Origin: Candidatus Woesearchaeota archaeon
Lineage (GTDB): Archaea; Nanobdellota; Nanobdellia; SCGC-AAA011-G17; JACPIM01
Length of the DNA stretch: 40,860 bases
Assembly (NCBI GenBank): GCA_965603615.1
Contig: CBFDDQ010000001.1
Span: 1-40,860 of the forward strand
Direction of reading: 5' to 3'
The position numbers and the translations under genes were made by a program. Within the stretch, counting starts at the first letter, position 1; each line of letters starts with the position of its first letter. Of the stretch, positions 1 through 35,997 are shown piece by piece. The notes beneath the pieces are model-generated. The model worked only from the letters and a program-made list of their open reading frames with translations. It was not told where the DNA came from and did not search any database.

Positions 1-125
1 TTTTATGGGTTTTATAAGCAACATTATTGATGGGATTAAATGCAAAAAGAGACCCATTAAGTGCAAATTAGAGGAAATAGAAGAAAATTTAAATAAAATA
101 GAAAAAGATTTATTTAAGATATAAA

Positions 126-1120: not shown

Positions 1121-1212
1121 CACTTGAATTATATGGGTTAGGGATAATTTTAGTATTTCTTTGGATAACTCAGGATTGGTATAGGAGGCAAGTTAGATAA
1201 AAATTTATAAAA

Positions 1213-1614: not shown

Positions 1615-1615
1615 A

Positions 1616-1762
1616 ATGAAACTACAACAAATGTCTAAAGGTGGGAAGAGTATCTTTATAACTTTACCAAAACAAATAATAAAAGGTTTTGGTTGGATAA
1701 AAGGAGATAAAATTAAACATAAGATAACTGGAGAAGGAAAAATAGAGTTAAGTAAAGAATAA
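1616..1762 (+). CDS. SpoVT/AbrB-like small DNA-binding protein (antitoxin-sized)
   Basis: 48-aa ORF below the ORF-track cutoff, with its ATG 2 nt after the GIY-YIG stop. My translation is MKLQQMSKGGKSIFITLPKQIIKGFGWIKGDKIKHKITGEGKIELSKE. The ITLPKQI..GW.KGDKI pattern is typical of AbrB/MazE swapped-hairpin domains. Confidence 0.55.
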   Translation: MKLQQMSKGGKSIFITLPKQIIKGFGWIKGDKIKHKITGEGKIELSKE

Positions 1763-1810
1763 AAATAGTTGAATTATAATATTTTTAAATAACGTTTAAA
1801 TATCCTTTAT

Positions 1811-2425: not shown

Positions 2426-2931
2426 TTTTCTCCAACCTTCTCATTTAAAAAACTAGAAGTATCATTTAACTCTAATCCCAACAAATCCCATTTTTCTAAA
2501 AATTCTTTATATTCATCAGAAAATTTTCTCATCTTAGATACAGGTTCAAATCCTTTTATTCTTAACCTGTCTTTATAGGCATTATGAGTGGTTCTAGTGT
2601 GTAAGGCGACTTTATTACTTGGGACTATATAAAAATCTGGTCTTTCCTTACCTTCTTTTAATAAAACAAATACATAAAATAAGGTATCACTTTCATAATT
2701 ATCTGCTTTTTCTCCTAATATCCAACGAGGATACTTTTTTCTTGGATACATAGTTGTTTTTACTTGAATACCCACAGAATTAGATGCATCAGAATTTGAA
2801 GCTAATATATCAATTCCCTTAGTATTCTTTAATGTAATAGAAGCAATATAGCCTCTTTTACTTAATTCGCCAGCAACAAAATACTCTCCTGCTACTCCTC
2901 TAAGGATTTTACTTGGCTTATTTTTTATCAT
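2422..2931 (-). CDS. PD-(D/E)xK superfamily nuclease-like protein (DUF4365/Hjc-like layout)
   Basis: 169 aa. GVAGEYFVAGELSKRGY ... KGIDILA ... VGIQVKTT gives the GE / D / (E/Q)-x-K arrangement of PD-(D/E)xK nucleases. Confidence 0.6.
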   Translation of the reverse strand: MIKNKPSKILRGVAGEYFVAGELSKRGYIASITLKNTKGIDILASNSDASNSVGIQVKTTMYPRKKYPRWILGEKADNYESDTLFYVFVLLKEGKERPDFYIVPSNKVALHTRTTHNAYKDRLRIKGFEPVSKMRKFSDEYKEFLEKWDLLGLELNDTSSFLNEKVGEK

Positions 2932-2967
2932 TTCTTAATCTCTAATCTAAATTGTATTGAGTTCATT

Positions 2968-5325
2968 TTAATTTTTTAATGATTTTGAATAAGGTAAAGA
3001 TTTAATATATTTTTCAATAAAATCCCAATCAGGTTCATCTCTATCATTTACAGGTAATTTAATATATGTTTTCTTTAATCTATCCTTATCTAAAACCCTC
3101 CCATAAGAATATCTTATTTTTTCTAATCTTAATAACGTTACTAAGAACAATCCTGTATACACATTAAAGGGGGTAATATCTTTTGGTAATAAGGCTTTAA
3201 CTCTTGTAAAAATTGCTCCTAATTCAGATTGATAAAATGCATGACCACCAGCCCCTATTGACACCAAAGATATAAAACTTTTAAACTTTTTCTCTCCATT
3301 AAATAATATTTTTTCTTTAATACCATTATTTGTAGTAAGGTTTTCTATTGAATTTACTAATATTCCTTCTTGGTGTTTCAAGTCTGTTTCTTTTGGTTTA
3401 TCCCCTCCAGAATAAACTTCAAATAATTTATCTATCTCAAAATCCTTCCAATTTTCAATATTTAAATTAGGTATAATTTCTTTTGATGAAGAATTTTTAG
3501 AAACCTCTTCAGAAAGATTATTTAAAAAAAGATGCCCACTATACTCTTTTAAAACCTCTATAAAAAAATCTTTGTTAAGTATTTTATAGTCTGGTTGCAT
3601 ATATGCTTCTATACACCACTCATCTTTTTCACTTACTAACTTAGTTAATGAATAAGGGGTAATTTTATTATTTTTAAAATTATATAACCATTCTTTTTTA
3701 ATACCTTTCCATTTATGAAAATAATCGCATCTTCCTAAAGACCTATTTTTAACAAATCCATCTTCTTTCCAATATCCAAAAAAAGTTTCTTTATCTTTAG
3801 GATGGGGTTTATGAGCTCTAAATACAACAACAGCAGTAACTGTCCCAACATCAGAATTCACAAATAAACTATTTGGCATTGAGAATACAGCCTCTAGTGT
3901 ATGGTCTTTTAATAATCTTTTTTTTAGCTCATAAACTTTACCCTTTTGGGCTATTACTCCACTCATTGGAACAATTGCTAAGCATAAACCATTTGGTTCT
4001 ATCATATCAAGATTATTTAATACATATTCAAATTCCTCTGTGTCACTCTTTTTATCTGACTTATAAGGAGGATTTAAAAAACCTATATTTGGTTTATATT
4101 TATTTTTAATTTTTTTTATTAATTTTTTATCAAAACAATCTCCTTTAAAGATACCACTCTTACCATCTCCATGAATAAACATATTAGAACAAACAAGAGC
4201 AAATATATCATTTTGGTATTCAATTCCTACAATTTGATTTTGTTTAATATTTTTGATTTTTTTCTCATTATCTTTTGAATCTTCAATCATCTTTTTTAAA
4301 GCACTTATTAAAAATCCACCAGTTCCACAACAATTATCAAAAACTATAGAATTTTTATTAACTTGAGCTATATCTGCAAAAAGTTCTGTAATGTGTGGAG
4401 GTGTTAAAACTATCCCAAGACCTTTATCCGAATTAGCATACCTTAAGAACTCTATATAAAATTGTCCTAATACATCATAATATTTATAAGTTCTCATAAA
4501 TTTATTAATATTTTTATCAATATCTCTAATTATATCTTTTAATTTGTTTATATCTTTACTAAAAGCTTCGTGGTCTTGAATAAACGAATAAGCCCTTTTT
4601 AATCCTTCAACCTTAGTTTGTTGCAAACCTTTTTTTAGTTCACTATAAATTGTATTGACTAGATACTTTGTTAATTCTTGGGGTTCCTTATATTTTTCAT
4701 AAGAAATTTTGAAATGTTCCTTTTTTAAGGCTAATAATATTCCTGATATTAACAAACTCCTATAGGATTCTTTTACTTTTAATTTATGTAATGTTGTATT
4801 AAGTTCCTTAGAATAAATCATTAAATCACTAAAATCTTGGTTAAATTTTATATCACTTGCTTTATAAGAATTAATATAGTTTTCTAATGGTAGTAATTGT
4901 TCTCCATCAAAATCATTTGCTAATGCACTATTCTTTGTTTGTAAAAAGTGAGAGACTTTTAATTCTTTTTTTGTTTCTCCACTAACAGCAATAGAAATCA
5001 CATCAAACTCCTTTGATAAATAAGATGAATATAACAAAGCACCATCAACTGCATATTCTGAATATTTATCTTTAGTTATACTTTCGTGCTTCTTTATATC
5101 TCCTTTACACTCTACAACAATTATTAAATTTGGTTCTTCTTTATAGGAGATTATAAATTCAGGATAACCTATACCATTTCCTCTTTTGGAGGCTATTTTT
5201 AATAACTTATTGATTCTTGGGTTTTTAGATTGTTGTTCTTCAATTATAACTTTATCTTTTTTTATAAAAGAATCTTTATAAAAATGTTTTCTAACAATAT
5301 TCTCCGTATTTCTTTCATTAACCAT
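2968..5325 (-). CDS. Fused restriction-modification-specificity enzyme (type IIG/IIC-like): N-terminal nuclease, N6-adenine DNA methyltransferase and HsdS-type TRD
   Basis: 785 aa. The N-terminus GYPEFII...LIIVVECKG is PD-ExK-like (HsdR N-terminal type). The HsdM-like MTase has motif I VFDNCCGTGGFL and motif IV FLNPPYK. The C-terminal ~180 aa resembles one HsdS target-recognition domain (WKDFEIDKLFEVYSGG, SIGAGGHAFYQ, YSYGRVL, IKLPV). Confidence 0.85.
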   Translation of the reverse strand: MVNERNTENIVRKHFYKDSFIKKDKVIIEEQQSKNPRINKLLKIASKRGNGIGYPEFIISYKEEPNLIIVVECKGDIKKHESITKDKYSEYAVDGALLYSSYLSKEFDVISIAVSGETKKELKVSHFLQTKNSALANDFDGEQLLPLENYINSYKASDIKFNQDFSDLMIYSKELNTTLHKLKVKESYRSLLISGILLALKKEHFKISYEKYKEPQELTKYLVNTIYSELKKGLQQTKVEGLKRAYSFIQDHEAFSKDINKLKDIIRDIDKNINKFMRTYKYYDVLGQFYIEFLRYANSDKGLGIVLTPPHITELFADIAQVNKNSIVFDNCCGTGGFLISALKKMIEDSKDNEKKIKNIKQNQIVGIEYQNDIFALVCSNMFIHGDGKSGIFKGDCFDKKLIKKIKNKYKPNIGFLNPPYKSDKKSDTEEFEYVLNNLDMIEPNGLCLAIVPMSGVIAQKGKVYELKKRLLKDHTLEAVFSMPNSLFVNSDVGTVTAVVVFRAHKPHPKDKETFFGYWKEDGFVKNRSLGRCDYFHKWKGIKKEWLYNFKNNKITPYSLTKLVSEKDEWCIEAYMQPDYKILNKDFFIEVLKEYSGHLFLNNLSEEVSKNSSSKEIIPNLNIENWKDFEIDKLFEVYSGGDKPKETDLKHQEGILVNSIENLTTNNGIKEKILFNGEKKFKSFISLVSIGAGGHAFYQSELGAIFTRVKALLPKDITPFNVYTGLFLVTLLRLEKIRYSYGRVLDKDRLKKTYIKLPVNDRDEPDWDFIEKYIKSLPYSKSLKN

Positions 5326-5328
5326 CTT

Positions 5329-5514
5329 TTATTTTTTCAAAAAGTATATTTTAGTCTTACCCATGAGTTTATGACCAATTTTACCTAACTTATGTAAAGC
5401 ATCTAAATAACCAGAAGTGTAATCCTTACCCTTTCCAACTTCCTCCGCAATTTCTCTATGATTTAGAGGTTCACTTGATTGCTTTAGTAATTTAAGTATT
5501 TTCTCGTAAGGCAT
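5329..5514 (-). CDS. Small winged-helix DNA-binding protein, candidate controller of the RM cassette
   Basis: 61 aa. The stop lies 3 nt before the RM gene start. LNHREIAEEVGKGKDYTSGYLDALHKLGKI looks like an HTH followed by a wing. First gene of the operon, directly downstream of palindromic repeats. Confidence 0.6.
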   Translation of the reverse strand: MPYEKILKLLKQSSEPLNHREIAEEVGKGKDYTSGYLDALHKLGKIGHKLMGKTKIYFLKK

Positions 5515-5522
5515 TGTTATAC

Positions 5523-5571
5523 ATAACAGGTTATATAACCTATCTATATAAACCTTCTTATAACCTGTTAC
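5523..5571. promoter_or_regulatory. Operator-like palindromes upstream of the RM cassette (C-box-like)
   Basis: Perfect 12-bp palindrome ggttatataacc (5529..5540). An 11-bp inverted repeat taacaggttat (5524..5534) / ataacctgtta (5560..5570) flanks tatctatataaa. All of this lies in the 65-bp gap upstream of the wHTH gene. Confidence 0.45.
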
Positions 5572-5579
5572 ATATCAGG

Positions 5580-5852
5580 CTAAGGATAATCCACACAACT
5601 TTCATCATGCCTATACTTAGTGCACCTTAAAACTCTTCTAATAGTTTTATACCAACCCTTAACAAAACCATATTTCTTTAATGCTAAAATACCATACTCA
5701 GAACAATGTGGATGAAAACCACAAATAATTTTATTTTTTCTATTTAATAAAGGTTTAATCTTTTTTCTATAAATCTTTTTAATAAGCCATATAGAAAATC
5801 TTTGAAAAATATTAAGTCTCCTTTTTGTAGTAGAGTTTTTGCTTTTTGACAT
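5580..5852 (-). CDS. yidD: YidD-like protein (membrane protein insertion efficiency factor family)
   Basis: 90 aa. CGFHPHCSEYGILALKKYGFVKGWYKTIRRVLRC...DYP matches the YidD signature C-x-F-x-P-x-CS-x-Y ... G ... R-x-x-RC ... D-P. Confidence 0.65.
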   Translation of the reverse strand: MSKSKNSTTKRRLNIFQRFSIWLIKKIYRKKIKPLLNRKNKIICGFHPHCSEYGILALKKYGFVKGWYKTIRRVLRCTKYRHDESCVDYP

Positions 5853-6120
5853 TTTTTGAATTACAATTAGGACATTGATTAAAATCTTTTTGCTTTTGCC
5901 TCAACCCACCTATCAAAATTCCAAATGGATTACAACAACATGCAGTGCTTTGTATTAAATCCTTGCCAAGCTCACCAGTATCTTGTGAAAATTTATCACT
6001 TGCTAAATAATGCCAAGTCTTACCACATTCATTACATTTACATTTCCATTCTTTAACATAACTTAGTTTTTCTTTCCAAATTAATTTCTTATATTGTTCT
6101 TCTGTTATGCTTTTTACCAT
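5812..6120 (-). CDS. Zinc-ribbon protein
   Basis: 102 aa. CKCNECGKTWHY ... CPNCNS are paired CxxC motifs, with a central Cys cluster ACCCNP. Overlaps the yidD-like start by 41 nt. Confidence 0.5.
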   Translation of the reverse strand: MVKSITEEQYKKLIWKEKLSYVKEWKCKCNECGKTWHYLASDKFSQDTGELGKDLIQSTACCCNPFGILIGGLRQKQKDFNQCPNCNSKNVKKQKLYYKKET

Positions 6121-6122
6121 TT

Positions 6123-6428
6123 TTATTCACTTATTTTATTTAATTCTGATTGTACAATTGCAGGTATAATTATTTGTAATATTATGTATAATAAAAACCA
6201 TAAAATAGTATTATTATCTTTTTTTACTTTTGTAGCAAATCCTTCACAATATTTATAGACCCAATAAATATTAGCAAAAGGAATAATTAATAAAAAACCT
6301 GTTGGTATATCTGCTCCAAGACTATTCATTTCGTCTTTTGTTGCAATTAACCAATATATAAAATAAAGTCCAAATGTAATAATACTAAAAAAATAAACTA
6401 AAACTATACTTCTTTTCTTGATATTCAT
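6123..6428 (-). CDS. DUF4234-like small membrane protein
   Basis: 101 aa. RSIVLVYFFSIITFGLYFIYWLIATKDEMN is the characteristic DUF4234 N-terminal TM plus YWxxK motif. There are further TM segments. Confidence 0.6.
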   Translation of the reverse strand: MNIKKRSIVLVYFFSIITFGLYFIYWLIATKDEMNSLGADIPTGFLLIIPFANIYWVYKYCEGFATKVKKDNNTILWFLLYIILQIIIPAIVQSELNKISE

Positions 6429-6431
6429 TTT

Positions 6432-6983
6432 TTACCTCCCTAAATTTATATAAATTATTTTCTTATCAAAAAATCCTTTACTAAATTTTAATCTTAATCC
6501 ACTAGAATCTTTTGGTAAATCAAAAATATAATTTCCTGTTTTTTCCATGTTAGGATGTAACTGTTCCCAAAATAAAGATTCTCCACGCCATCTAGCATCT
6601 TTATCTACATTAAAATGTCTTCCAAGACTATCAATAATTTCAATATCAGGTGGAGAAAAATATTCTTTTGTTTCTTTCCCAATATTTTCTACAGTTATTT
6701 CAACAACATAAAAAACACCTTGTGGTTCTGTTATCCACCAATCTCCTAATTCAGTAGTTTTATCTATATTATTTACTCTGTAAGCAATATTATCAATAAT
6801 AAAAGTCTCACCAATATTATAGGTTTTTGTAATATCAGATTTTATAGTTTTACTTTTGGTTTTTATGCTTCCATTATTAACCATAAAGATATTTCCAATT
6901 ACAAAAAAAACTATTAAAAGAACTAAAAAAATTGAGAGTATTTTATGTTCTTGTGCCCATTCCTGAAAGTCTTCTAAAGTCAT
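6432..6983 (-). CDS. DUF4352-like membrane-anchored extracellular Ig-like domain protein
   Basis: 183 aa. N-terminal TM ILSIFLVLLIVFFVIGNIF. The core YVVEITVENIGKETKEY...IEIIDSLGRHF is typical of DUF4352. Confidence 0.65.
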   Translation of the reverse strand: MTLEDFQEWAQEHKILSIFLVLLIVFFVIGNIFMVNNGSIKTKSKTIKSDITKTYNIGETFIIDNIAYRVNNIDKTTELGDWWITEPQGVFYVVEITVENIGKETKEYFSPPDIEIIDSLGRHFNVDKDARWRGESLFWEQLHPNMEKTGNYIFDLPKDSSGLRLKFSKGFFDKKIIYINLGR

Positions 6984-7055
6984 TTTTCTTTCAATATATG
7001 ATATTTAGTTGATACTTTTGTCACTACGCTCTTTAGTTAATAAATCTTTCCATAA

Positions 7056-7334
7056 ATGGTTGATACAATGGCTATAAAATGGGATTTGGCAGGTTGGATT
7101 ATTAGAAGTAAAAATAGACCAGAAGTTCTAAAACAATTAGTTATACCTCAAAATCCAAGTAGGGTAGCTAAGAAACTTAAAATGAGTTTAACCCATGCTA
7201 GTAAAACAATAAGAGAACTAAATTCTAAAAAACTAATCACTTGTCTAACTGAAAAGAATAAAGTAGGCAGGATATATCAAATTACAAAACAAGGAAAAGT
7301 GATTTTAGAATATCTTAAAAAGATTGAGAATTAA
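7056..7334 (+). CDS. Winged-helix transcriptional regulator (ArsR/MarR-like)
   Basis: 92 aa. NPSRVAKKLKMSLTHASKTIRELNSKKLITC...GRIYQITKQG is an HTH plus wing. Divergent from the DUF4352 cluster. Confidence 0.65.
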   Translation: MVDTMAIKWDLAGWIIRSKNRPEVLKQLVIPQNPSRVAKKLKMSLTHASKTIRELNSKKLITCLTEKNKVGRIYQITKQGKVILEYLKKIEN

Positions 7335-7725
7335 CTTCTTTTTTCTTTTTTTTAATTAAAATATAAAATACAATTAAGATTATTAACCAAGGAACACTTT
7401 CTATTAAATTAATGATTATATCAGTCAACTCTACTGTTGCCTCAATAATATCATAAAAAATTGATTCTATTATCATTAAAACTCTAAATAAACCATAAAA
7501 AATTCCCATAGATACAACAGAAGCAAAAGCAACACTAGCACCAATATTAAATAATTCACAAATGACATGGTCTGATTTTAAAAATTTAAAAAAGAATTTT
7601 TTATGGAATACCAACCAAGTGGCTAATATACAAACCATCACAGAAATAAAAATAGGGAGCATTAAATCAAGATTAGAAAAAGCTTCCACTACTCTATAAC
7701 TATAAGTTTCATTTAAAGGATACAT
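7315..7725 (-). CDS. Multi-pass membrane protein
   Basis: 136 aa with about four hydrophobic segments. No family recognised. Confidence 0.5.
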   Translation of the reverse strand: MYPLNETYSYRVVEAFSNLDLMLPIFISVMVCILATWLVFHKKFFFKFLKSDHVICELFNIGASVAFASVVSMGIFYGLFRVLMIIESIFYDIIEATVELTDIIINLIESVPWLIILIVFYILIKKKKKEVNSQSF

Positions 7726-7909
7726 AAAATTTCAACTTTAATACTTATATAAATACTTTGCTAATAAAAAGTATCCAAATCTCAAAAATGCAATTTGTAG
7801 GGTAATATGTCACTATACATACTTTCAAAAATCAACTCGTGAAACCTGGATTTCCCTAACCAAATAGGAGTGGCGTTAGGTTTATATACCAATATGCATT
7901 ATACATATT

Positions 7910-8032
7910 ATGGTTAAATATATCAGAAAGACAATAACTATAAAACAAGAACAAGGCAAGTGGATAAAAAAGAAAATAATCAATTTATCTAGGTTTGTTC
8001 AAAAAGCAATAGAAAGAGCTATGAAAAAGTAA
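7910..8032 (+). CDS. Ribbon-helix-helix (CopG-like) small protein
   Basis: 40-aa ORF not in the track: MVKYIRKTITIKQEQGKWIKKKIINLSRFVQKAIERAMKK. The pattern is a beta-strand (ITIK), then helix, then the SRFVQKAIERA helix. Confidence 0.45.
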   Translation: MVKYIRKTITIKQEQGKWIKKKIINLSRFVQKAIERAMKK

Positions 8033-8052
8033 CCAGAGACCGAAGTCCCTGG
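8033..8052 (+). terminator. GC-rich hairpin immediately after the RHH stop codon
   Basis: ccagagac-cgaa-gtccctgg forms an 8-bp stem with one mismatch and a CGAA loop. It is conspicuously GC-rich in an AT-rich context. Confidence 0.3.
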
Positions 8053-8135
8053 GGAAATAAATGTCCGCGAGAACAAATAATTTCCAGATAAAAGATGTTC
8101 TGGGAAATTTATATATCTTGCGGTAGGAGAAAAAA

Positions 8136-8492
8136 ATGCAAGAAGTTAGTAAAACAATATTAACAGAACTAAATCAGTTCACAGGTACAGAAAATTACTA
8201 TAGAAACTTTACAGGATTACTATATACAGATGGAATAAAGTTCTTAGCAGATAAGCTAGGCTGTTACTGGTTAATAGATTTAGTAGGGAGTTATCAACAG
8301 AGATTAAGAAATATTGGTTTTCAATTATGGAAAATTGAAGTAAATGAAGACAATTCTGCAGTTGTAACCTGCAAAGAAGACACAGGAAGACCAGATTTAG
8401 TAAGACAGGAATTACCTTATACAGATTTCAAAATAAAAGAACTAGAACTTTACTGTATAAATGGAGTTCTACTTCTAAAATCTGAATATTAG
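8136..8492 (+). CDS. DUF6876-like protein (plasmid/phage-associated family)
   Basis: 118 aa. LNQFTGTENYYRNFTGLLYTDGIKFLADKLGCYWLIDLV resembles the FTGTE-x-YYR...YTDGV...AYWL-D signature. Preceded by ggtaggag. Confidence 0.55.
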   Translation: MQEVSKTILTELNQFTGTENYYRNFTGLLYTDGIKFLADKLGCYWLIDLVGSYQQRLRNIGFQLWKIEVNEDNSAVVTCKEDTGRPDLVRQELPYTDFKIKELELYCINGVLLLKSEY

Positions 8493-8503
8493 GAGGGATA
8501 AAA

Positions 8504-8671
8504 ATGCAAGAAGAAAATTTACAAGGAATAGAACCCAATATGAGACTTAACATCAAAGAAAATGCAAAGAAAGAAAAATATTGGGATGCAACAGTGAGAG
8601 GACAGAACATAGAAGAAATCAAAGACAGAATACAGAAACTAAAAGAACTAGCAATAAAGGAGTGTGAGTAA
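8504..8671 (+). CDS. Small hypothetical protein
   Basis: 55-aa ORF not in the track (MQEENLQGIEPNMRLNIKENAKKEKYWDATVRGQNIEEIKDRIQKLKELAIKECE). A strong aggaggg lies 7 nt upstream. The stop is 1 nt before the next ATG. Confidence 0.5.
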   Translation: MQEENLQGIEPNMRLNIKENAKKEKYWDATVRGQNIEEIKDRIQKLKELAIKECE

Positions 8672-8672
8672 G

Positions 8673-9521
8673 ATGATAACAGTAACAACTTATGAAGAAT
8701 TAACCTTTTACATAAAGATGTTCAAAGATGGAAATGCAGACTTATTAATTATAGAATCAAAAGGAGGATATGGCAAGTCAACAACAGTAGACAGAATAAT
8801 GCAAGAAATAAGACACTTGAAGGTTCTGGCACACATGACCCCACTTCAATTCTATATCTCTGGATATATCTATAGAGATTGTCCTATTGTCTTTGATGAC
8901 CTTGATACTTTGATAACAAACAAGGATAATGTTGCACTTTTGAAACAATTTGCAGAAACTCAGAAAACAAAAGAAATTTCCTGGTTTTCAACAAGTAAAA
9001 TCCTAAAAGATAATAGTATACCAAAAAGATATGAGACAAAAAGTAGAATAATAATAATCTGTAATAGTTTTGATATAGTCAACAAGAATGTTAGTTCTTT
9101 AGCAGATAGAGGATTTCATATCATATTCAAACCAACCAAACAAGAGCTGATGTCTAAAATCAAAGAGATTTCTATAAAGTATAGTAAAGACATAGATACA
9201 ACTAAAATAATTGAAATTATTGACAAACACAAAAGCTTTGGAGACATCTCACTAAGAACTTTTGTTAAGGGTACATTTCTTTACAAGCAGGACAAAGAAA
9301 ATTTCAAGATAAGACTATTACAAGATATGGAACTCAATCCCAAACTAATATTACTTGATAAGCTATTACAAGAATATAATAATGATAAAGATAGACTACA
9401 AGTATGGAAAGAACAAGGATTTAGCAGAGCAACTTATTATAGACATAAACAAAGTCTCAAAGTCTCACCAGAAGTAAAAAATGTAAAAGAAGTAGTGATA
9501 CCAATTATTCAGAAAGTATGA
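8673..9521 (+). CDS. P-loop NTPase (plasmid/virus replication or packaging-type ATPase)
   Basis: Walker A is ESKGGYGKSTT and Walker B-like is PIVFDDLD. A sensor-like IIIICNS follows. The C-terminal FSRATYYRHK is HTH-like. I prefer the ATG at 8673 to the GTG at 8664 used in the track. Confidence 0.7.
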   Translation: MITVTTYEELTFYIKMFKDGNADLLIIESKGGYGKSTTVDRIMQEIRHLKVLAHMTPLQFYISGYIYRDCPIVFDDLDTLITNKDNVALLKQFAETQKTKEISWFSTSKILKDNSIPKRYETKSRIIIICNSFDIVNKNVSSLADRGFHIIFKPTKQELMSKIKEISIKYSKDIDTTKIIEIIDKHKSFGDISLRTFVKGTFLYKQDKENFKIRLLQDMELNPKLILLDKLLQEYNNDKDRLQVWKEQGFSRATYYRHKQSLKVSPEVKNVKEVVIPIIQKV

Positions 9522-9546
9522 TATTATGAGACTTATTTTTTATTTC

Positions 9547-10008
9547 TTAAATAAAAGAGATTATTACTAAGATTAAACCAAAAGCTACAATAAAATACTT
9601 AATCTTTTTAATCTTATTAACATGAAATAGCCAGGTATCAAATCTTTTATCTGAACTTCTTGTTTTATCCTCTTCAAGTTTTTTATTCCATCTGTTACCT
9701 ATACTACTAACTAATTTAGTTCCTAACTTATCTTCTATTTCCTGCCCTATTTTGATATTAATGAGAGAATATCTTGCATTAATGTGGGTTAGATTATCTA
9801 CAAAACCCATAATAAAATATAATACAATTAAAGTTAAACCAGAAAATAAAAAATTATAATCACTCATAAATTTAATAGCCACACTTATTCCTATTAAGGG
9901 TAAGAGACCAAGTTCCCATATAGAAAGTTTGTTCATTTGGTTTCTATAAAATCTTATATTTTCTAAACATTCTTTCCAATCTTCAAATAATTTTTCTTTG
10001 CTATTCAT
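9547..10008 (-). CDS. Membrane protein
   Basis: 153 aa with three hydrophobic segments. No family recognised. Confidence 0.5.
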   Translation of the reverse strand: MNSKEKLFEDWKECLENIRFYRNQMNKLSIWELGLLPLIGISVAIKFMSDYNFLFSGLTLIVLYFIMGFVDNLTHINARYSLINIKIGQEIEDKLGTKLVSSIGNRWNKKLEEDKTRSSDKRFDTWLFHVNKIKKIKYFIVAFGLILVIISFI

Positions 10009-10160
10009 ACCATTTTTTTATCTATAAACCACTTTAAAAATTTATCTTTTTAAAAGGTCAATTCATCTATTTAATTATTATTTAAAAAATATCTTTAATG
10101 TGTAATTAATTTGTAGGTATAAGTTATCTATATATTCTTATACAGTTTTGTTAATTTATA

Positions 10161-10424
10161 TTATTCATCTGGGAAAATAACTCTACTATCAACTCCTAGA
10201 ACCTTAGCAATTTTAATTTTCAGTAAAATTGGAGCTTCTTCTTTATTATGAATTATTCTGTTAATATATGATTTATCCACATTAATCTTTTGAGCTAATT
10301 CGGTTTGTTTTAAGCATTTATCTCTTAATAAAGTTAATAATGCTTCATTAGTATCTCTTCTCTGTTTTTCTGGTTGAGAATCGTTGTTGGTACCAACTAT
10401 ATCACTAGTTACTTTATATTTCAT
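10161..10424 (-). CDS. XRE-family helix-turn-helix regulator
   Basis: 87 aa. LKQTELAQKINVDKSYINRIIHNKE...KIAKVLGVD is a classic HTH_3/XRE pattern. Overlaps the upstream gene by 11 nt. Confidence 0.75.
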   Translation of the reverse strand: MKYKVTSDIVGTNNDSQPEKQRRDTNEALLTLLRDKCLKQTELAQKINVDKSYINRIIHNKEEAPILLKIKIAKVLGVDSRVIFPDE

Positions 10425-11241
10425 TTGCTTTGCTTTCCTTCTTTATAATATAATCAACTACTTGTTTCAAAGTTTGTGATAAACATGCAAAGTTAATTCT
10501 AAGTTTGTTTATATCACTTCCAAAACAATCTAATCTGTGAATTACCTCAGAAGATAATGAACCATTCTTAAGAAGAGATATTAATACTGGAAATCCTACT
10601 GGTACTTTTAGTTTAAACTCTTCTCTTACTCCTTGTTTCTTAGTATATAATTTATACTGAGAAACTAAAAAATCAACAGTTATACAGTTAAGACCATCTA
10701 ATCTAATACCAATCAAATCTTTATTTAATTCAATAGTTTTAACAAGAACATCAGCAGGAGTTATAGTAACATTAGCATATTTTTGTATTAAAAGTTTAAA
10801 TTGATTATAAAAAGAAAGTATTGCAGGAATAGATATAGACTGCTTTGATGAAATATACATTGTAGCCTTCTTACTTTTTGCTCCAATTCCAAAATCAATT
10901 TTCAAAAGATTAGGTATATTCTCAAGTGTAGTTCTTTTTATAGTGTTTCTTCTATAAGAAGGAATATTACAAGTTAATATAAGATTTTGAAACTTCCAGT
11001 TAAAGATACTATCATTGCTTTTTTCAACTAAATGATACAAACCTCTCACATCATTTTTTATTTTAACATCAAGCATTCTCTTTAATGCTGATTTAACTGT
11101 ATTAACATTCTCATCAATCATAAAAGCTATTTTCTTAGGAAATGCACCTTCAGGATGTTTTTCTAAACAGATAGTTATTCTTCTTTCTAATTCAACAGCA
11201 CTACTACTCTTAGTTGAAACTTTTAGTTTATTGTTTATCAT
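10414..11241 (-). CDS. Hypothetical protein with N-terminal wHTH (possible element replication/regulatory protein)
   Basis: 275 aa. FPKKIAFMIDENVNTVKSALKRML...GLYHL is wHTH-like. The rest is unassigned. The gene is translationally coupled to the RHH gene upstream. Confidence 0.6.
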   Translation of the reverse strand: MINNKLKVSTKSSSAVELERRITICLEKHPEGAFPKKIAFMIDENVNTVKSALKRMLDVKIKNDVRGLYHLVEKSNDSIFNWKFQNLILTCNIPSYRRNTIKRTTLENIPNLLKIDFGIGAKSKKATMYISSKQSISIPAILSFYNQFKLLIQKYANVTITPADVLVKTIELNKDLIGIRLDGLNCITVDFLVSQYKLYTKKQGVREEFKLKVPVGFPVLISLLKNGSLSSEVIHRLDCFGSDINKLRINFACLSQTLKQVVDYIIKKESKANEI

Positions 11242-11375
11242 CTTAAAGACTCCTCCAATCTTTTTCTAACAACTGCACTAGCAGAGTTACCAGTTGTTTC
11301 TGCTTCTTGTTTAACCTGATTCCATATAGAGTCTGTTACAAAAACAACTCTGCGTTTCTTTAATATAGTAGGCAT
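11238..11375 (-). CDS. Ribbon-helix-helix (CopG/Arc/MetJ-like) protein
   Basis: 45-aa ORF not in the track: MPTILKKRRVVFVTDSIWNQVKQEAETTGNSASAVVRKRLEESLR. This is the canonical RHH pattern. Its TGA overlaps the ATG of the next gene (ATGA). An upstream in-frame ATG at 11394..11396 is an alternative start. Confidence 0.6.
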   Translation of the reverse strand: MPTILKKRRVVFVTDSIWNQVKQEAETTGNSASAVVRKRLEESLR

Positions 11376-11709
11376 AGTTCTCTCTAGCATATTCATAGTT
11401 GCATAAATCTTAAAAAGAAAGAAAATTAACTAAGTCTTGGAATAGTTTAATTATTTTCTTTTTTTTCTTTTGTTTTATCTATAACTTTTGCAAACCTCCT
11501 TTTATAGTCTTGCCACCATTCTGATAAATTAACATCATTATTCATTATTCCCACCTTCTAATTTTGAAATTATCATATTCTATAATAAAATTAATATTGT
11601 TTATAATTACCTTTGTAGTAGAGAAGAAGTCTTACGATTTTTTCCAGATTTTTATCGTTCACTAAAAAAATACACAAAAGATTTAAAGAAATTAGATATT
11701 AATAATCCT

Positions 11710-12192
11710 ATGGTAATATCAGGAAAAATACACAAAAGTATATTATTTTTATTAGGTCAAGCAGTAGGAAGTAGAGTAGGAGTAGAAAAAGAAAAACAAT
11801 CAAGTTTCTTGGTTTATACCCCCTACAAACAATTAACAAATATACTTAAAAAAAAGCCTATATCACAATCAGAAATTTACAATATATTAAGTGATTCTTT
11901 TTTAAGAGATGGTTGGTTCAATCGTGGAAAAAAGTCAATTAATATTAAAGTATATGATAAATCAAAAAGAAAAGACCAAAGAGATGCTATAAAAAAAGCA
12001 TTAAATGAACTGGCTGATAAAAAATTTATAAGCATAAAAAATAAAGGTCATGAAGATTCAAAAAAATATTATCTAACCTCAAAAGGTTATAAAGAATATC
12101 TTAAAATTTGGGTAGGACATTTACCTTTTATAAAAATTTATAATAAAATGAGTCCTAATGAAAAAGAGGACTTATTTGAATTACCTTTTTAA
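11710..12192 (+). CDS. Hypothetical protein with C-terminal wHTH
   Basis: 160 aa. AIKKALNELADKKFISIKNKG...YYLTSKGYKEY is PadR/MarR-like. Confidence 0.55.
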   Translation: MVISGKIHKSILFLLGQAVGSRVGVEKEKQSSFLVYTPYKQLTNILKKKPISQSEIYNILSDSFLRDGWFNRGKKSINIKVYDKSKRKDQRDAIKKALNELADKKFISIKNKGHEDSKKYYLTSKGYKEYLKIWVGHLPFIKIYNKMSPNEKEDLFELPF

Positions 12193-12193
12193 G

Positions 12194-13543
12194 TTATTCT
12201 CTAAACTTATCCATTATATTCACAAATTTCTCTTCAGGATGTTTCAAAGCATAAGCAAAGATATCTTTAAATTCTTTTTCTGTTTTCTTATCTTTCTCCT
12301 CTTGCTCTACAACAGTCTTCAAATCCAAAGCCATATAACACTTAACACATAAACTATTAGTTGAACTGTTAACAAATCCACACCTTACACATTTTTTAGG
12401 TTTTAATATATCTTCAGTTTCTCTTTTATCTAACAAACCAGCTTTCTCTAAAACAGTTTTTTCAATATCAGCACCAGCTAAATGAATATAAGTTGAAGGT
12501 GTTGAAGAACCAGGAAACCAACCACACCAGATTCTTAATTGTGCTTCATTAAATCCTTGTCTTGATAATTCTGTAGCTCTACAATGTCTAAAAGAATGAG
12601 GATAACACTTCTTTAGAGAAATTCCTGCCTTATTTCCTATCACTTTAATTACTTTCTTTAAGCCATCTTCTCCTAAAGCCTTTCCAAACCAGGAACCTAT
12701 ATTAATCCACAAAGGAGATTCTCCATCTTCTTTATTTGGATGTGCCTCATACCACTTTTTAAGGTCAGGAACACATTCTATCAATCTCAATCTTCTAGAA
12801 TCAGTTTTCCCTTGAGGTATCAAAATAATAGCTCCTTTATCATCAAAAACTAAATGTTTTATTCTTAATCTCAAAAACTCTCCTCTTCTCGCACCAGTTT
12901 CATAAAGAGTAAATAACAAAGCTTTGTCTCTAACATTATCTGATACTTGTATTAATTTTTTAACATCCTTCACTGATAGAACATCCTCAGGTAGCTTAAT
13001 ACCATTTTTTCTTGTGAGATTAATCCAGCTCACAATCTTAGGATATTTTCCTTTTTCCTCAAAATTATAAAACCATTTAAAGAAAGCCTTAGTATTAATC
13101 TTACAGGTTAAAATTGTCTTTGGTTTTAATTTATATTTTTTCTCTAAATCAATAAGAAAGTTCTCTATATCCTTCTTTGTTATTTTTTCAAAATCTTTTC
13201 CTATCCTTATAACCATAAGTTTTGCATAATTAAGATAACTTCTACGCGTGTCTATTGAAGTTGTATGATTCATTAAATGTTTATAATATATCTTTAATAC
13301 CTTTATTTGACATTTAGTTAATCTGTCATCATTAAATATAGCTTCTATTCTCCTATCAATCTTATCAGCCAAATCATCCTCAAAGGTTTTAGAAGCTGAA
13401 GAATTGTATAATCTCTGAAATTTAATATATCTACTAAGTACCTTTCTCTCATTTCTTCCTAAAGTACCTGTTTTAAACAAATCTTCTGATTCTTGCAAAG
13501 TTAACCTCTTAAAATCTTTTAACATTGGTTTTGAAACTGTCAT
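12194..13543 (-). CDS. int: Tyrosine recombinase/integrase with C-terminal zinc ribbon
   Basis: 449 aa. Catalytic signature: TGARRGEFLRLR (Arg I), HSFRHCRATEL (H-x-x-R) and STYIHL (Tyr). There is an N-terminal SAM-like core-binding region. The C-terminal ribbon is CVRCGF...CVKC. Confidence 0.9.
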   Translation of the reverse strand: MTVSKPMLKDFKRLTLQESEDLFKTGTLGRNERKVLSRYIKFQRLYNSSASKTFEDDLADKIDRRIEAIFNDDRLTKCQIKVLKIYYKHLMNHTTSIDTRRSYLNYAKLMVIRIGKDFEKITKKDIENFLIDLEKKYKLKPKTILTCKINTKAFFKWFYNFEEKGKYPKIVSWINLTRKNGIKLPEDVLSVKDVKKLIQVSDNVRDKALLFTLYETGARRGEFLRLRIKHLVFDDKGAIILIPQGKTDSRRLRLIECVPDLKKWYEAHPNKEDGESPLWINIGSWFGKALGEDGLKKVIKVIGNKAGISLKKCYPHSFRHCRATELSRQGFNEAQLRIWCGWFPGSSTPSTYIHLAGADIEKTVLEKAGLLDKRETEDILKPKKCVRCGFVNSSTNSLCVKCYMALDLKTVVEQEEKDKKTEKEFKDIFAYALKHPEEKFVNIMDKFRE

Positions 13544-13577
13544 CTTATTCCTCCTATTAGGACTTATATTTATATGA

Positions 13578-14270
13578 TTTAGTGCACTATTGGTTACTCT
13601 TCATACATTACACCCAATGCTCTCAGGTTTATTTGGAACTAGCACTCTATTCATCTCTTTATTCCAAAAAACTTCTTTACCAGAACAAATTATCTCCTTT
13701 CCAATAATAGAAAAAGCAAAAGCCTACAAATCTATTTTAACAAGTTTATTCTCAGGAGGCTTAGTATCCATGCTCCCTGGAATGGGTTCAGCTCAAGCAG
13801 CTATTATAGGTTCAACATTAATAAGAGAAATAGAAACAAAAACATTTTTAATTATGATAGGTGGAATAAACACAGTTAATTTCATCTTAAGTTTTGCATC
13901 TCTCTACATTCTTTCAAAAGCAAGAAATGGGGCTATAGTAGCAGTATCTAAATTATTAGAATCATTTACATTAAAAGATTTAATTTTATTTGTAGGTGTA
14001 GCCCTTGTAGCAGGTGGCATAGCAACTATCTTAGCAATCAACCTATCAAAAATATTTTCAAAAACAATCACAAAACTAAATTACAAAGCTCTTTGCATCT
14101 CAATTATTTCATTCATCTCAATCTTAGTCTTCATCCTAACAGGATTTTTAGGCTTATTTATCTTAGTTATAGCAACCTGCATAGGTATTATACCAATAAC
14201 AAAAAACATCGGAAGAAATCACCTGATGGGCTGCTTAATCTTGCCAGTTATTCTTTACTTTCTACTTTAG
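13578..14270 (+). pseudogene. 5'-truncated TctA/DUF112-family membrane transporter gene
   Basis: The frame is open only from 13578, and its only start is a TTG at 13590. The sequence (LSGLFGTSTLFISL..., MLPGMGSAQAAIIGS, several TMs) looks like the C-terminal half of a roughly 400-aa DUF112 protein. It begins about 35-45 nt from the integrase start. Confidence 0.5.
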
Positions 14271-27706: not shown

Positions 27707-28573
27707 ATGCAAAAAGAGGATTTTATTAAGAAAATTGAAGTAGAGTTAAAAATATCAAAAAACTCAGATTATACAATAAAAAGTTATATTAAATCAAATT
27801 TAAAACTTTTAGATTTTGCTAAAAAACAACCAAAACAAATAACTCAAGATGATGTAAAAGCCTATCAAGCAGAGTATCTTTCTAATAAAGCCTCATCTAG
27901 TGTGATTTTATTCTTAGCAGCCATTAAGTATGCTTATGATACAATTTTTAGTAAAGATCCTACAAAAGGAATAAAAAGGCCAAAAAAAGAATCAAAAATT
28001 CCTATTGTATTAAGCAAAGATGAAGCAACAAGATTAATAGATTCTATTAATAATAAAAAGAGTAAATTAATGATAAGCTTAATTTACGCATGTGGTTTAA
28101 GAGTTTCAGAGCTAACTAATCTAAAAATTCAAGATTTAGATTTTAATCAGAGGATAGGTTATGCAAGACAAGCAAAAGGTAGAAAAGATAGAATTTTTAA
28201 TATACCTAACCTTTTGTATAATAAATTAAAAAAACAAGCAGAAAATAATGAAGAATATCTCTTTACAGGACCAAAAGGTAAACTAACAACAAGAAATATA
28301 CAAAAAATAGTAAGTAATGCAGCTAAAAAAGCAGGTATTGATAAGGCAGTTCATCCACATACTCTAAGGCATAGTTTTGCTACTCATTTGCTTGAAAATG
28401 GGATAAATATAAGAGAAATCCAAGAATTACTTGGTCATTCACAACTTGATACAACTGAAAAATATATTCATATTTCAGGGGAAAATTTAAAACAAATTAA
28501 AAGTCCACTTGATACTTTGATGGAGGAAAAAAATGAAAAAAAGAGATCAAACATTAAAGAAAAAAACACTTAA
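27707..28573 (+). CDS. xerA: XerA/XerC/D-type tyrosine recombinase
   Basis: 288 aa. GLRVSELTNL (Arg I), HPHTLRHSFATHLLENG (H-x-x-R), LLGHSQLDTTEKYIH (His and Tyr). Size and layout are typical of chromosomal Xer proteins. Confidence 0.9.
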   Translation: MQKEDFIKKIEVELKISKNSDYTIKSYIKSNLKLLDFAKKQPKQITQDDVKAYQAEYLSNKASSSVILFLAAIKYAYDTIFSKDPTKGIKRPKKESKIPIVLSKDEATRLIDSINNKKSKLMISLIYACGLRVSELTNLKIQDLDFNQRIGYARQAKGRKDRIFNIPNLLYNKLKKQAENNEEYLFTGPKGKLTTRNIQKIVSNAAKKAGIDKAVHPHTLRHSFATHLLENGINIREIQELLGHSQLDTTEKYIHISGENLKQIKSPLDTLMEEKNEKKRSNIKEKNT

Positions 28574-28838
28574 AAGAGATAATTATACATGCCAGAAATG
28601 TAAAATCCAAGATAAAACAGCAAAAACATTAGAAGCACATCATATAACTCCATTGTGTTATGGAGGGGAAAATAGCTTAAATAATCTTATTATTTTATGT
28701 TATGATTGTCATCACTTTGCCCCAAATAAAAAAGAAGAATTTAAAAAATATATGAAAGAAGAAATAGATGGTACTAGTACTATTCTCCTCAAAGCATGGC
28801 ATAAAGTTAGAAAAGAGCATCCAAAATTATTCAAATAA
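28533..28838 (+). CDS. HNH endonuclease
   Basis: 101 aa. CQKCK...EAHHITPLCYGGENSLNNLIILCYDCHH is the HNH/Cys4 motif. Overlaps the xerA 3' end by 41 nt. Confidence 0.85.
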   Translation: MKKRDQTLKKKTLKRDNYTCQKCKIQDKTAKTLEAHHITPLCYGGENSLNNLIILCYDCHHFAPNKKEEFKKYMKEEIDGTSTILLKAWHKVRKEHPKLFK

Positions 28839-30883: not shown

Positions 30884-30959
30884 AAGTAACTATTCTATTT
30901 TATTCTTTAAATATCTTTCCACAAGGTTTTTAAATCAAAATTTTTATATTAATCTATAT

Positions 30960-31078
30960 GGGCCCATAGCTCAACCTGGCTAGAGCACTTGACAAATTTG
31001 TGGGTGAAGCTCTTAAGCTCTAGGTTAAAACTAGACATAGAAACCAAGGGGTTGCGGGTTCAAATCCCGTTGGGCCCT
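30960..31078 (+). tRNA. tRNA-Lys(CUU) candidate with two introns (17 nt at 30/31, about 27 nt at 37/38)
   Basis: Acceptor GGGCCCA/TGGGCCC. D-arm GCTC-AACCTGGCTA-GAGC. T-arm GCGGG-TTCAAAT-CCCGT. Removing 30992..31008 and 31016..31042 gives the anticodon arm CTTGG-CTCTTAA-CCAAG and a 75-nt mature tRNA. Intron 1 sits in a perfect hBHBh' motif. No CCA is encoded. Confidence 0.7.
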
Positions 31079-33795: not shown

Positions 33796-35997
33796 ATGAC
33801 ACAATTAATTATTTCAGAAAAACCTACTGCAGCGCAAAAAATAGCTGCAGCACTAGCAGATAAAAAACCAAAAAAAATCTTAGTAAATAAAGTTCCATAT
33901 TACGAATTAGAACATAAAGGAAAAAAAATTATTGTAGCTTGTGCAGTGGGTCATCTTTACGGGTTAAAACAAGAAACAGGAAAAAAATCTGAATATCCAG
34001 TTTTTAACATTGATTGGTATCCAGCTTCAGAATTTAGAAAAAGTGCAGCTTTTACAAAAAAATATCTTACAATTATTAAAAAATTAGCTAAAGAAGCAGA
34101 TGAATTTATTGTAGCAACAGATTATGATATAGAGGGGGAAGTTATTGGTTTAAACATAATAAAATATGCTTGTAAACAAAAAGATGCACAAAGAATGAAG
34201 TTCTCCACTTTAACAAAAAATGATTTAATTAAATCTTATGAAGAAAGAACTAAACATATTGATTGGCCTCAAGCAAATGCCGGCGAAGCAAGACATAAAA
34301 TGGATTGGTTTTTTGGAATAAACCTATCAAGAGCTCTAACAACTGCAATTAAAGAAACAGGATCATTTAAACTTATGTCTACAGGAAGAGTTCAAGGACC
34401 AGCATTAAAATTAATTGTGGACAAAGAAAAAGAAATTAAAAAATTCAAGCCAGATCCTTACTGGGAAATCCAATTAACAGGAAAAATAAACAAAGGAAAC
34501 ATTATAACTTATCATAAATTAGGAAAAATATTCGAAAAAAAGAAAGCTAGTAATATTTTTAACAAATGTAAAAAAGAAAAAAAAGCAGAAGTACTAAAAG
34601 TTGAGAAAAAACAATTTAAATCTTATCCACCTATACCTTTTGATTTAACTTCTTTACAAATTGAAGCTTACAAATGTATTAATTTTTCACCGAGAATTAC
34701 CCTTTCAGTTGCACAAAAGCTTTATACAAGAGGATATATATCATACCCAAGAACTTCTTCACAGCCATTACCCCAAAGTATTGGTTATAAAAAAATAATT
34801 ACTTCTTTATGAAGATTATACCCAAGAGAAGCAAATTTTTTACTAAAAAAACCAATACTAAAACCAACTTATGGTAGAAAAACAGATCCAGCACACCCTG
34901 CAATATATCCTACAGGAATTATACCAAAATTCAAGAATACTTATGAAAAGAAACTTTATGATTTAATTGCAAGGAGATTCTTGGCTGTATTTGGAGAACC
35001 TGCTTTAAGAAAAACTATAATAGTAACTTTAGATTGTAAAAAAGAAAATTTTATTGCAAAAGGAACAACTACTATTAAGCAAGGTTGGTTTGAACTTTAT
35101 GGCAGACATGTAAAACTAAAAGAAGAAGAACTTCCAAAAATTAAAGAAGGAGATATTTGTCAAATTAAAAAACTTGAAAAATTAAATAAAGAAACCTCCC
35201 CACCAAAAAGATATACAGAATCTTCTCTGATTAAAGCCCTAGAAAAAGAAAACCTGGGAACAAAAGCTACAAGATCCCAGATAATAGAAACTTTATACAA
35301 TAGAGGGTTTATTGATGAAAAAGCAATACAAGCAACAGAGCTTGGTATAAGAACAGAGGAAACTTTAGAAAAATATTCTCCTAAAATAGTAGAATCTGCT
35401 TTAACAAGACACTTTGAAGAATCAATGGAAAAAATAAGGAGTGGTAAAGAAAAATCAGAAAAAGTATTAAAAGAATCTAAAGAAACAATAATTGAAATCA
35501 CAAAACAATTTAACAAGCATTTAAAGCAAATAGGTAAAGAACTTCTTGCAGCTCATAAAGAAACAAGAAATGTTATGACTTTCGTTGGCCAGTGCCCTAA
35601 TTGTAAAAAAGGAGAGTTGCATATAAGAAGAGGAAAATTTGGTAATTTCATTTCATGTAATAAATATCCTGATTGTAAAACTATATTTTCTGTTCCACAA
35701 GTTATTGTTAAACCAACCAAGGAAATATGTGAAACTTGCAAACATCATAAAGTTAAAATTATTAAAAAAAGAAGAGCACCGCAGATAATTTGTATAAATT
35801 CCAAATGTCCAGAAAAATTAAAAAATTATACAAAAAAACAAAGAAAAGAATTAGAAGATATAGAACAAGGAAAAAAAGAAAAAAAATGTCCTAAATGTGA
35901 TTCTCCTTTAAAATTAAGAAAATCTATTTATGGTGCATTCTTAGGTTGTAGTAATTACCCAAAATGCAGATATATAGAAAAAATTAAGCAGAAATAA
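33796..35997 (+). CDS. topA: DNA topoisomerase IA, interrupted by a single in-frame TGA at 34810..34812
   Basis: Toprim motifs LIISEKP and ATDYDIEGE. Active-site Tyr in GYISYPRTSS. After the TGA the same frame continues with the conserved DPAHPAIYPT and LYDLIARRF. The C-terminal topo-I Zn ribbons are CPNCKKG...CNKYPDCK and CPKCDS...CSNYPKCR. Confidence 0.85.

Follow-up and report, generated by a model that had tools for sequence, protein, structure and literature searches.

The window, that is, the whole stretch of 40,860 nucleotides analyzed here, encodes PolD DP1 and DP2, Orc1/Cdc6, LonB, Cdc48, a PAC2 proteasome chaperone, and a bacterial-type SerRS. The best genome matches of the SerRS were MAGs of Woesearchaeota, Pacearchaeota, Iainarchaeum, and Nanoarchaeota (50-55% identity), and the named homologues of PAC2 belong to 'Candidatus Woesearchaeota archaeon' and 'Nanoarchaeota archaeon'. 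Hence, gene content together with the SerRS and PAC2 matches identifies the host, a tiny uncultured archaeon, as a Woesearchaeota-like member of the DPANN. Positions 1-14270 look like an integrated mobile element: they contain an N6 DNA methylase gene (2968-5325), a DUF6876 gene (8136-8492), many ORFs without a family, and a gene for a tyrosine recombinase of 449 aa (12194-13543) that abuts a TctA fragment (13590-14270) corresponding to the C-terminal half of the family alone. A second, XerA-like recombinase gene (27707-28573) and its HNH ORF (28533-28838) have syntenic counterparts in relatives. The type IA topoisomerase gene topA (33796-35997, plus strand) consists of two ORFs in the same frame, split by one in-frame TGA at 34810-34812 (tta TGA aga). 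Its orthologues are uninterrupted, with Leu in L201 and Gln in L203 at the TGA site (680 and 746 aa), and the TGA may have come from a nonsense mutation or from a sequencing error, or may mark a pseudogene.

The sole Rfam match in the 40.9-kb window was a tRNA (RF00005) on the plus strand at exactly 30960-31078, scoring 47 bits where the gathering score is 29; the alignment covers model positions 1-71 and carries a 53-nt insert in the anticodon arm. The sequence is composed of GGGCCCATAGCTCAACCTGGCTAGAGCACTTG-ACAAATTTGTGGGTGAA-GCTCTTA-AGCTCTAGGTTAAAACTAGACATAGAA-ACCAAGGGGTTGCGGGTTCAAATCCCGTTGGGCCCT. All coordinates and sequence strings of the original prediction are present in the window, and the normal acceptor, D, and T arms that it described agree with the Rfam score and with the arm sequences themselves (acceptor GGGCCCA/TGGGCCC, D GCTC/GAGC, T GCGGG/CCCGT). 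It had further claimed that removal of two introns yields a perfect 5-bp anticodon stem. When 30992-31008 and 31016-31042 were excised, ARAGORN recognized the doubly spliced sequence as a tRNA-Lys(CUU) of 75 nt, whose anticodon arm CTTGG-CTCTTAA-CCAAG has a 5-bp stem (CUUGG/CCAAG) and a 7-nt loop (CUCUUAA) with U33, anticodon CUU, and a purine (A37) at position 37, and intronless orthologues confirmed this structure. In standard tRNA numbering, insert 1 lies between G30 and G31 and insert 2 between A37 and A38. The gene has a G+C content of 50% and its spliced form 59%, compared with 28% for the whole window. The three exons share a single stretch of 119 nt, so a split (trans-spliced) layout is absent here. 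The gene does not encode CCA, and its discriminator T is also found in the close relatives L206 and L201. The features assigned to the locus are listed in the table.

Table. Proposed features of the tRNA-Lys(CUU) gene and its upstream region, in window positions
Feature	Position	Strand	Description and basis
Likely archaeal promoter	30919..30934	+	BRE-like CCACAAGG then TATA box TTTTTAAA; conserved position, TATA consensus
Exon 1	30960..30991	+	tRNA positions 1-30: acceptor 5' strand, D arm, C27-G30; Rfam, ARAGORN cloverleaf
Intron 1, 17 nt	30992..31008	+	ACAAATTTGTGGGTGAA; site 30/31; excision restores G31-C39; strict BHB at cut sites
Exon 2	31009..31015	+	tRNA positions 31-37: G31, C32 U33 C34 U35 U36 A37; anticodon CUU
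Intron 2, 27 nt	31016..31042	+	AGCTCTAGGTTAAAACTAGACATAGAA; canonical site 37/38; canonical intron for ARAGORN once intron 1 is gone
Exon 3	31043..31078	+	tRNA positions 38-73: anticodon stem 3' strand, 5-nt variable loop, T arm, acceptor 3' strand, discriminator U
BHB1, strict hBHBh'	30982..31013	+	BHB scan; pair counts across homologous introns
BHB1 outer helix h, 4 bp	30982-85 / 31010-13		AGAG / CTCT, i.e. A21-G24 with C32-U35
BHB1 central helix H, 4 bp	30986-89 / 31003-06		CACT (C25-U28) / GGTG, with one G·U pair
BHB1 bulges, 3 nt each	30990-92; 31007-09		5' UG|A (U29 G30|A); 3' AA|G31
BHB1 inner helix h', 2 bp	30993-94 / 31001-02		CA / TG
BHB1 cut sites	30991|30992; 31008|31009		After second bulge base; the junction that the cloverleaf needs
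BHB2, relaxed	31010..31043	+	Scan of intron-1-spliced RNA: h=5, one mismatch in H
BHB2 outer helix	30988-91+31009 / 31044-48		Anticodon stem; 5 bp after removal of intron 1, 1 bp unspliced
BHB2 central helix	31010-13 / 31037-40		CUCU (C32-U35) / AUAG; C31012·U31038 (C34·U) mismatch, 3/4 pairs
BHB2 bulges, 3 nt each	31014-16; 31041-43		UA|A (U36 A37|A); AA|A38
BHB2 inner helix	31017-31036		G31017-C31036, then bulged C31018, then 5 bp 31019-23/31031-35

We scanned metagenome contigs (given here by L numbers) for the pattern of the 5' exon, which retrieved 120 tRNA genes. The gene order PAC2(-)/tRNA(+)/winged-helix (wHTH)(-)/SerRS(+) is conserved among relatives, and the tRNA-Lys genes at this place are therefore positional orthologues. 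The tRNAs of the relatives matched through SerRS (identity up to 55%) are not orthologous to the tRNA-Lys of the window. The 5' parts of the orthologous genes are identical or nearly identical to exon 1, and exon 2 (GCTCTTA) was found unchanged. No intron is present in L206, L202, and L203-205, whose PAC2 proteins are 86%, 74%, and 73% identical to that of the window, respectively, nor in L196, L098, L088, L182, and L120. The intron at 30/31 occurs alone in L149, L170, and L089, and L201 (PAC2 79% identity to the window) contains both introns, one of 13 nt at 30/31 (ATATAAAGGCGAA) and one of 16 nt at 37/38 (AGCTCTAGACAGAGTG), the latter sharing its first eight bases, AGCTCTAG, with intron 2 of the window. 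The predicted spliced sequence is carried uninterrupted by the orthologues of L206, L202, L203, and L196. Intronless orthologues score 64-70 bits with the Rfam tRNA model and read CTTGGCTCTTAACCAAG exactly, with no break in CTTG|GCTC. The intronless tRNA-Lys(CUU) of L196 and L126 is identical to the spliced product at 70 of the 75 positions, the five differences being located in the D loop, at one base of the variable loop, and at the discriminator.

In a neighbor-joining tree of PAC2, the window and L206 are sister to L201 and L208. This is most simply explained if the common ancestor of the window, L206, L201, and L208 had both introns and L206 lost them precisely. Such a precise loss would fix the junctions G30|G31 and A37|A38 by natural genetic evidence. 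The orthologue in L207 (PAC2 80% identity to the window; positions 1-75, minus strand) is a normal tRNA up to position 30 (…GAATGGCTT) and then continues with at least 36 nt of AT-rich, non-tRNA sequence to the end of the contig; an insert of far greater length, at 30/31 or close to it, is probable.

Other disrupted tRNA genes and possible mobile genes came to light in these contigs. The set L119, L157, L108, L172, L082, and L128 includes a tRNA-Arg(UCU) with a 17-nt intron at 30/31 ending in GGTGAA, a tRNA-Lys(UUU) with three inserts (30/31, 37/38, and T loop), and several Lys genes with T-loop inserts of 26-70 nt. In the Iainarchaeum MAG L002, a tRNA-Lys(CUU) bears a D-loop insert of ∼45 nt, and the tRNA next to it has a 66-nt insert in the anticodon arm and an insert of ∼25 nt in the variable region (6941-7057 and 7095-7246). 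ORFs resembling LAGLIDADG homing endonucleases lie directly downstream of the tRNA-Lys gene and next to topA in L201 (7895-8539 and 4332-5492) and upstream of PAC2 in L208 (1-160); there is none at the corresponding places in the window. We had considered a location of the LAGLIDADG ORF within the tRNA intron of L201 and rejected it, as the ORF is downstream of the gene.

The textbook bulge-helix-bulge (BHB) that had been predicted around intron 1 was recovered element by element, and the BHB scan placed a strict motif at the exact cut sites. Cleavage after the second bulge base gives the required junction, as anticipated, and this junction is the one read straight through (CTTG|GCTC) in the intronless orthologues. 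Shuffled 119-mers hold 1.6 strict BHB motifs on average, or 0.2 if the outer helix must have at least 4 bp, and since chance motifs are this common the pattern scan has no significance on its own. BHB1 is meaningful because it sits exactly on the junction that the cloverleaf requires and because it is conserved in homologues. To count pairs, we aligned eleven genes with a 30/31 intron (12-32 nt), including one tRNA-Arg(UCU) and one three-intron tRNA-Lys(UUU); they form ten distinct rows, as the window and L168 are identical once anchored. In these ten introns, 96% of the cells of BHB1 are standard pairs, and sliding the 3' strand by 1-3 columns lowers this to 33-56%. The alignment was anchored on the presumed splice sites and thereby leans toward the BHB1 structure. 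The observed pairing and covariation were reached in 0 of 500 shuffles.

The individual helices differ in what they contribute. The central helix is paired in 100% of the introns, and it has two double changes, A26-U to G26-C in L089 and in L201, as well as a change of U·G to U-A in L149. The inner helix covaries, with four or five pair types, and the sequences differ between introns with the pairing kept. The outer helix has no independent support, because its exon bases are also conserved in intronless genes. Nearly invariant features of the 30/31 introns are the first base, A, and the 3' end, GGUGAA or GGUGAU. The outer helix takes one base of the D loop and three of the D stem (A21-G24), so that BHB1 can form only if the D arm opens.

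With default settings, ARAGORN called no tRNA in the window. The original prediction held that no single-intron solution gives a sensible anticodon loop. Formally this was too strong, as ARAGORN with the -i option, applied to the unspliced gene, returns two one-intron models, a tRNA-Ser(AGA) with a 44-nt intron and one with a boundary at 31/32 for intron 1; the substance of the claim stands, as the serine model is not a sensible one. Its anticodon stem contains an A·C mismatch, and the long variable arm of tRNA-Ser is missing. Placing intron 1 at 31/32 leaves A31·C39 in the anticodon stem and is excluded by the orthologue comparison. Shifting the register by one base, to 30993-31007, likewise gives a BHB-like shape with a 5-bp outer helix, and the minimum-free-energy fold of the precursor uses this register, but its product would be 77 nt, and its specific pairs are not conserved, as L170 and L119 have C31 and a U or C opposite U29. 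The models returned when the search is limited to one intron, together with the BHB-like shape of the shifted register and its use in the minimum-free-energy fold, speak for another exon structure, either the single 44-nt intron or an intron 1 shifted by one base. Against it stand the mismatched stems or overlong product and the intronless orthologues, which match the doubly spliced sequence exactly across the arm, and we consider it very improbable. ARAGORN, a check suggested by the original prediction, thus identifies the doubly spliced sequence correctly and misses (default) or mislabels (-i) the unspliced gene.

Intron 2 does not have the perfect 4-bp central helix of a canonical 37/38 intron, and because only three of the four central pairs form we regard it as a relaxed BHB variant. 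The relaxed motif, described previously as having one C-U mismatch and one bulged C, was indeed seen when the intron-1-spliced RNA was scanned. The cuts at 36/37, 37/38, and 38/39 give an identical product, because A's flank both ends of the intron; canonical geometry exists in the 37/38 register only. The homologous 37/38 intron of L201 has a perfect central helix, CUCU/AGAG. Among second introns elsewhere, those of the window, L166, and L157 being parsed by hand, the central helix is CUCU/GGGG in L166 and has one mismatch each in L188 and L157. Together with the mismatch in the window, this indicates that relaxed central helices are common in this group. The pentamer GCTCT occurs twice, 8 nt apart, in exon 2 (31009-31013) and at the start of intron 2 (31017-31021), and the same repeat is found in intron 2 of L201; intron 2 may have originated by local duplication, or it may act as a decoy partner.

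Taken together, the exon/intron structure, the anticodon, the strict hBHBh' motif at 30/31, and the relaxed BHB at 37/38 are supported by the sequence comparisons, and 30960-31078 is very probably a functional gene for tRNA-Lys(CUU) in a Woesearchaeota-like DPANN archaeon, with two archaeal introns that would be spliced by proteins. The gene could instead be a decaying pseudogene, its inserts being junk that is left in place or removed inaccurately, with another gene supplying tRNA-Lys(CUU). Decay would be in line with the imperfect BHB of intron 2 (C·U mismatch, bulged C), with the lack of introns in the closest relative, L206, and with the in-frame TGA in the neighboring topA, which we counted against a functional gene since it points to some gene decay or sequence error in the contig; the visible portion of the genome is 40.9 kb. 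However, the gene retains four intact arms and an intact T loop, its exons share 93% identity with intronless orthologues, and its promoter block is conserved. BHB1 is of the strict type, with compensatory changes among its homologues, in which it is conserved, and L201 retains both introns at the same sites. A pseudogene is therefore improbable.

The TATA box TTTTTAAA (30927-34) is located 26-33 nt upstream of the mature 5' end. The block CCA..A..TTTTTAAA, which comprises CCACAAGG-TTTTTAAA and spans 26-41 nt upstream, is found at the same distance in L201, L202, L203, L206, and L207. From its position and the archaeal TATA consensus, it is likely the BRE/TATA promoter. PAC2 (minus strand, start at 30883) is separated from the tRNA gene by a spacer of 76 nt with two conserved A/T boxes, TTTAAATA (30906-13) and TTTTTAAA, and the A/T boxes in 30895-30935 look like the back-to-back promoters of two divergent genes.

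The two BHB motifs cannot exist at the same time, because both need C32-U35, as an outer strand in BHB1 and as a central strand in BHB2. In the unspliced RNA, the BHB1 conformer has a folding energy of -29.0 kcal/mol versus -22.7 kcal/mol for the cloverleaf plus BHB2, and the outer helix of BHB2 is reduced to 1 bp since intron 1 interrupts the anticodon stem. The exclusiveness of the motifs, the greater stability of BHB1, and the dependence of the BHB2 outer helix on removal of intron 1 lead us to predict ordered splicing, with intron 1 removed first and intron 2 second. Removal of closely spaced introns in order, with the second BHB formed only after the first intron is gone, has been described (PMC8450103). 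The minimum-free-energy fold of the precursor is a non-BHB structure of -41.7 kcal/mol, in which the D arm AACCUGGCUAGAGC pairs with GCUCUUAAGCUCUAGGUU (30973-30986 with 31009-31026).

We propose the following course for the maturation of this tRNA, in which promoter use, the splicing order, and the action of EndA and a ligase are inferred. Transcription would start from the conserved BRE/TATA promoter ∼30 nt upstream. In the primary transcript, A21-U28 would pair with the GGUG of the intron and with C32-U35, producing the strict hBHBh' with the 30/31 junctions in 3-nt bulges. EndA would cleave both bulges of BHB1, and an RtcB-type ligase would join the exons. Only now could the 5-bp anticodon stem form, and the freed C32-U35 would pair with AUAG of intron 2; the second, relaxed BHB at 37/38 would be processed likewise. 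Trimming of the ends and addition of CCA, proposed because the gene has none, would give the 75-nt body plus CCA.

The same product might be reached by other mechanics, with intron 2 removed first or independently, in a relaxed 38/39 register (a helix UCU/AGA with C32 bulged), or with no fixed order. When the cloverleaf is enforced in a constrained fold of the intron-1-spliced RNA, the pairs U33-A41, C34-G40, and U35-A39 give -37.6 kcal/mol versus -32.1 kcal/mol for the BHB register, and the A's at both ends of intron 2 make 36/37, 37/38, and 38/39 inseparable by sequence. For a different pre-tRNA with a D-loop intron, assays suggest that the canonical intron is removed first (PMC5829648). In contrast, the single base pair of the intron 2 outer helix in unspliced RNA, the requirement of both motifs for C32-U35, the advantage of 6 kcal/mol for the BHB1 conformer over the cloverleaf plus BHB2, and the perfect CUCU/AGAG of L201 in the canonical register all argue for the order given above. 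We regard such other mechanics as possible, if somewhat unlikely.

No EndA and no RtcB or RNA ligase was found in the window by Pfam scan (40 of 54 ORFs of at least 80 aa). A tblastn search with an approximate M. jannaschii EndA sequence matched only two-unit EndA genes on the unrelated contigs L152 and L176. These two-unit (α'2-like) endonuclease genes (L152 8976-9875 and L176 1841-2689) are located a few kb from Lys tRNAs with 65-nt canonical introns. The original prediction had gone on to a splicing endonuclease of broad specificity, which the tRNA-Lys sequence alone implies only weakly: the gene by itself needs no enzyme of relaxed specificity, because the BHB of intron 1 is strict and that of intron 2 has one mismatch and retains both bulges. 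The related contigs hold more relaxed motifs and inserts in T and D loops. DPANN lineages with an α4-type EndA bearing an 'L3' insert show a marked rise in disrupted tRNA genes, in a study whose genomes included one Pacearchaeota and one Woesearchaeota (Kaneta et al., PMC5829648). The idea of broad specificity, which is associated with EndA of the (αβ)2 and ε2 types and of the α4 type with the L3 loop, agrees with the literature on the L3-loop EndA of DPANN (PMC5829648).

As the gene is missed by ARAGORN or called 'Ser(AGA)', genomes of this group can seem to lack tRNA-Lys(CUU). Missing tRNAs are a topic of a 2026 preprint that covers 208 complete Nanobdellota genomes and does not analyze these introns (bioRxiv 10.64898/2026.05.13.725050). 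What the locus adds is an orthologue series, an intron site shared with the split of N. equitans and Staphylothermus, and a gene missed or mislabeled by common tRNA finders. The presence of zero, one, or two introns in one positional orthologue among close relatives, including a precise double loss, makes a clean natural series that is useful for studying gain and loss of tRNA introns in DPANN archaea.

Because the 30/31 site is the split point of the Nanoarchaeum tRNA-Lys(CUU), the locus also bears on the debate about whether split tRNAs are ancestral or derived from intron-containing genes. Tentatively, the 30/31 intron might be an old feature of tRNA-Lys(CUU) in Nanobdellota, the phylum containing both Woesearchaeales and Nanoarchaeum, lost repeatedly and precisely, and a cis-spliced ancestor of the split point in N. 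equitans. If this were true, it would be direct evidence, from within one phylum, for the origin of a split tRNA from a gene with an intron. Another possibility is that tRNA-Lys(CUU) is predisposed to disruption at 30/31, as the D-stem strand AGAGC is complementary to G31-U35; such a predisposition could account for the independent disruption of this site in Staphylothermus.

A two-intron archaeal tRNA gene such as this one belongs to a known kind, as multiple introns, the 30/31 site, disrupted tRNA genes in DPANN, and a split at 30/31 have all been described. Multi-intron archaeal tRNAs and non-canonical BHB introns were reportedly treated by Marck & Grosjean in 2003 and by Sugahara in 2007/2008. 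Our gene resembles multi-intron archaeal tRNAs in its short BHB introns, one outside the anticodon loop and one at 37/38; it differs in its AT-rich (28% GC), Woesearchaeota-like DPANN host and in the very short length of the introns (17 and 27 nt). Multi-intron tRNA genes are known from Thermoproteales, Thaumarchaeota, Nanoarchaeota, ARMAN, and other DPANN (PMC4090602; PMC5829648). Position 30/31 is on a published list of non-canonical intron positions of archaeal tRNAs, where multiple BHB introns are well described (PMC4090602), and many disrupted tRNA genes have been reported in DPANN, including Woese- and Pacearchaeota (PMC5829648). In the literature searched, we found neither a description of the intron sequences of the window nor an account of a cis intron at 30/31 in a Woesearchaeal tRNA-Lys(CUU), the latter being an absence of evidence only. 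Intron 2 resembles the canonical archaeal 37/38 intron in its position and its 3-nt bulges, in using the anticodon stem for the outer helix, and in drawing the 5' strand of the central helix from positions 32-35; it departs from it in the C·U mismatch, the bulged C, and a motif that is incomplete before intron 1 is removed.

The closest parallel for intron 1 is the tRNA-Lys(CUU) of Nanoarchaeum equitans and of Staphylothermus marinus/hellenicus, which is split, trans-spliced, and joined exactly at 30/31 by way of a canonical hBHBh' (PMC3218864). In N. equitans (NC_005213), the 5' half is located at 308963 on the plus strand and the 3' half at 380370 on the minus strand (PMC3218864). The tRNAs that N. 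equitans encodes in halves come from ordinary, full-length genes in the Yellowstone nanoarchaeon Nst1 (PMC3655853). The split genes and the window gene are alike in the isoacceptor, the position of the 30/31 junction, and the hBHBh' motif. They differ in that the split tRNAs are encoded at two loci whose transcripts pair in trans via a long GC-rich helix, whereas the window gene is contiguous and has a 2-bp inner helix.
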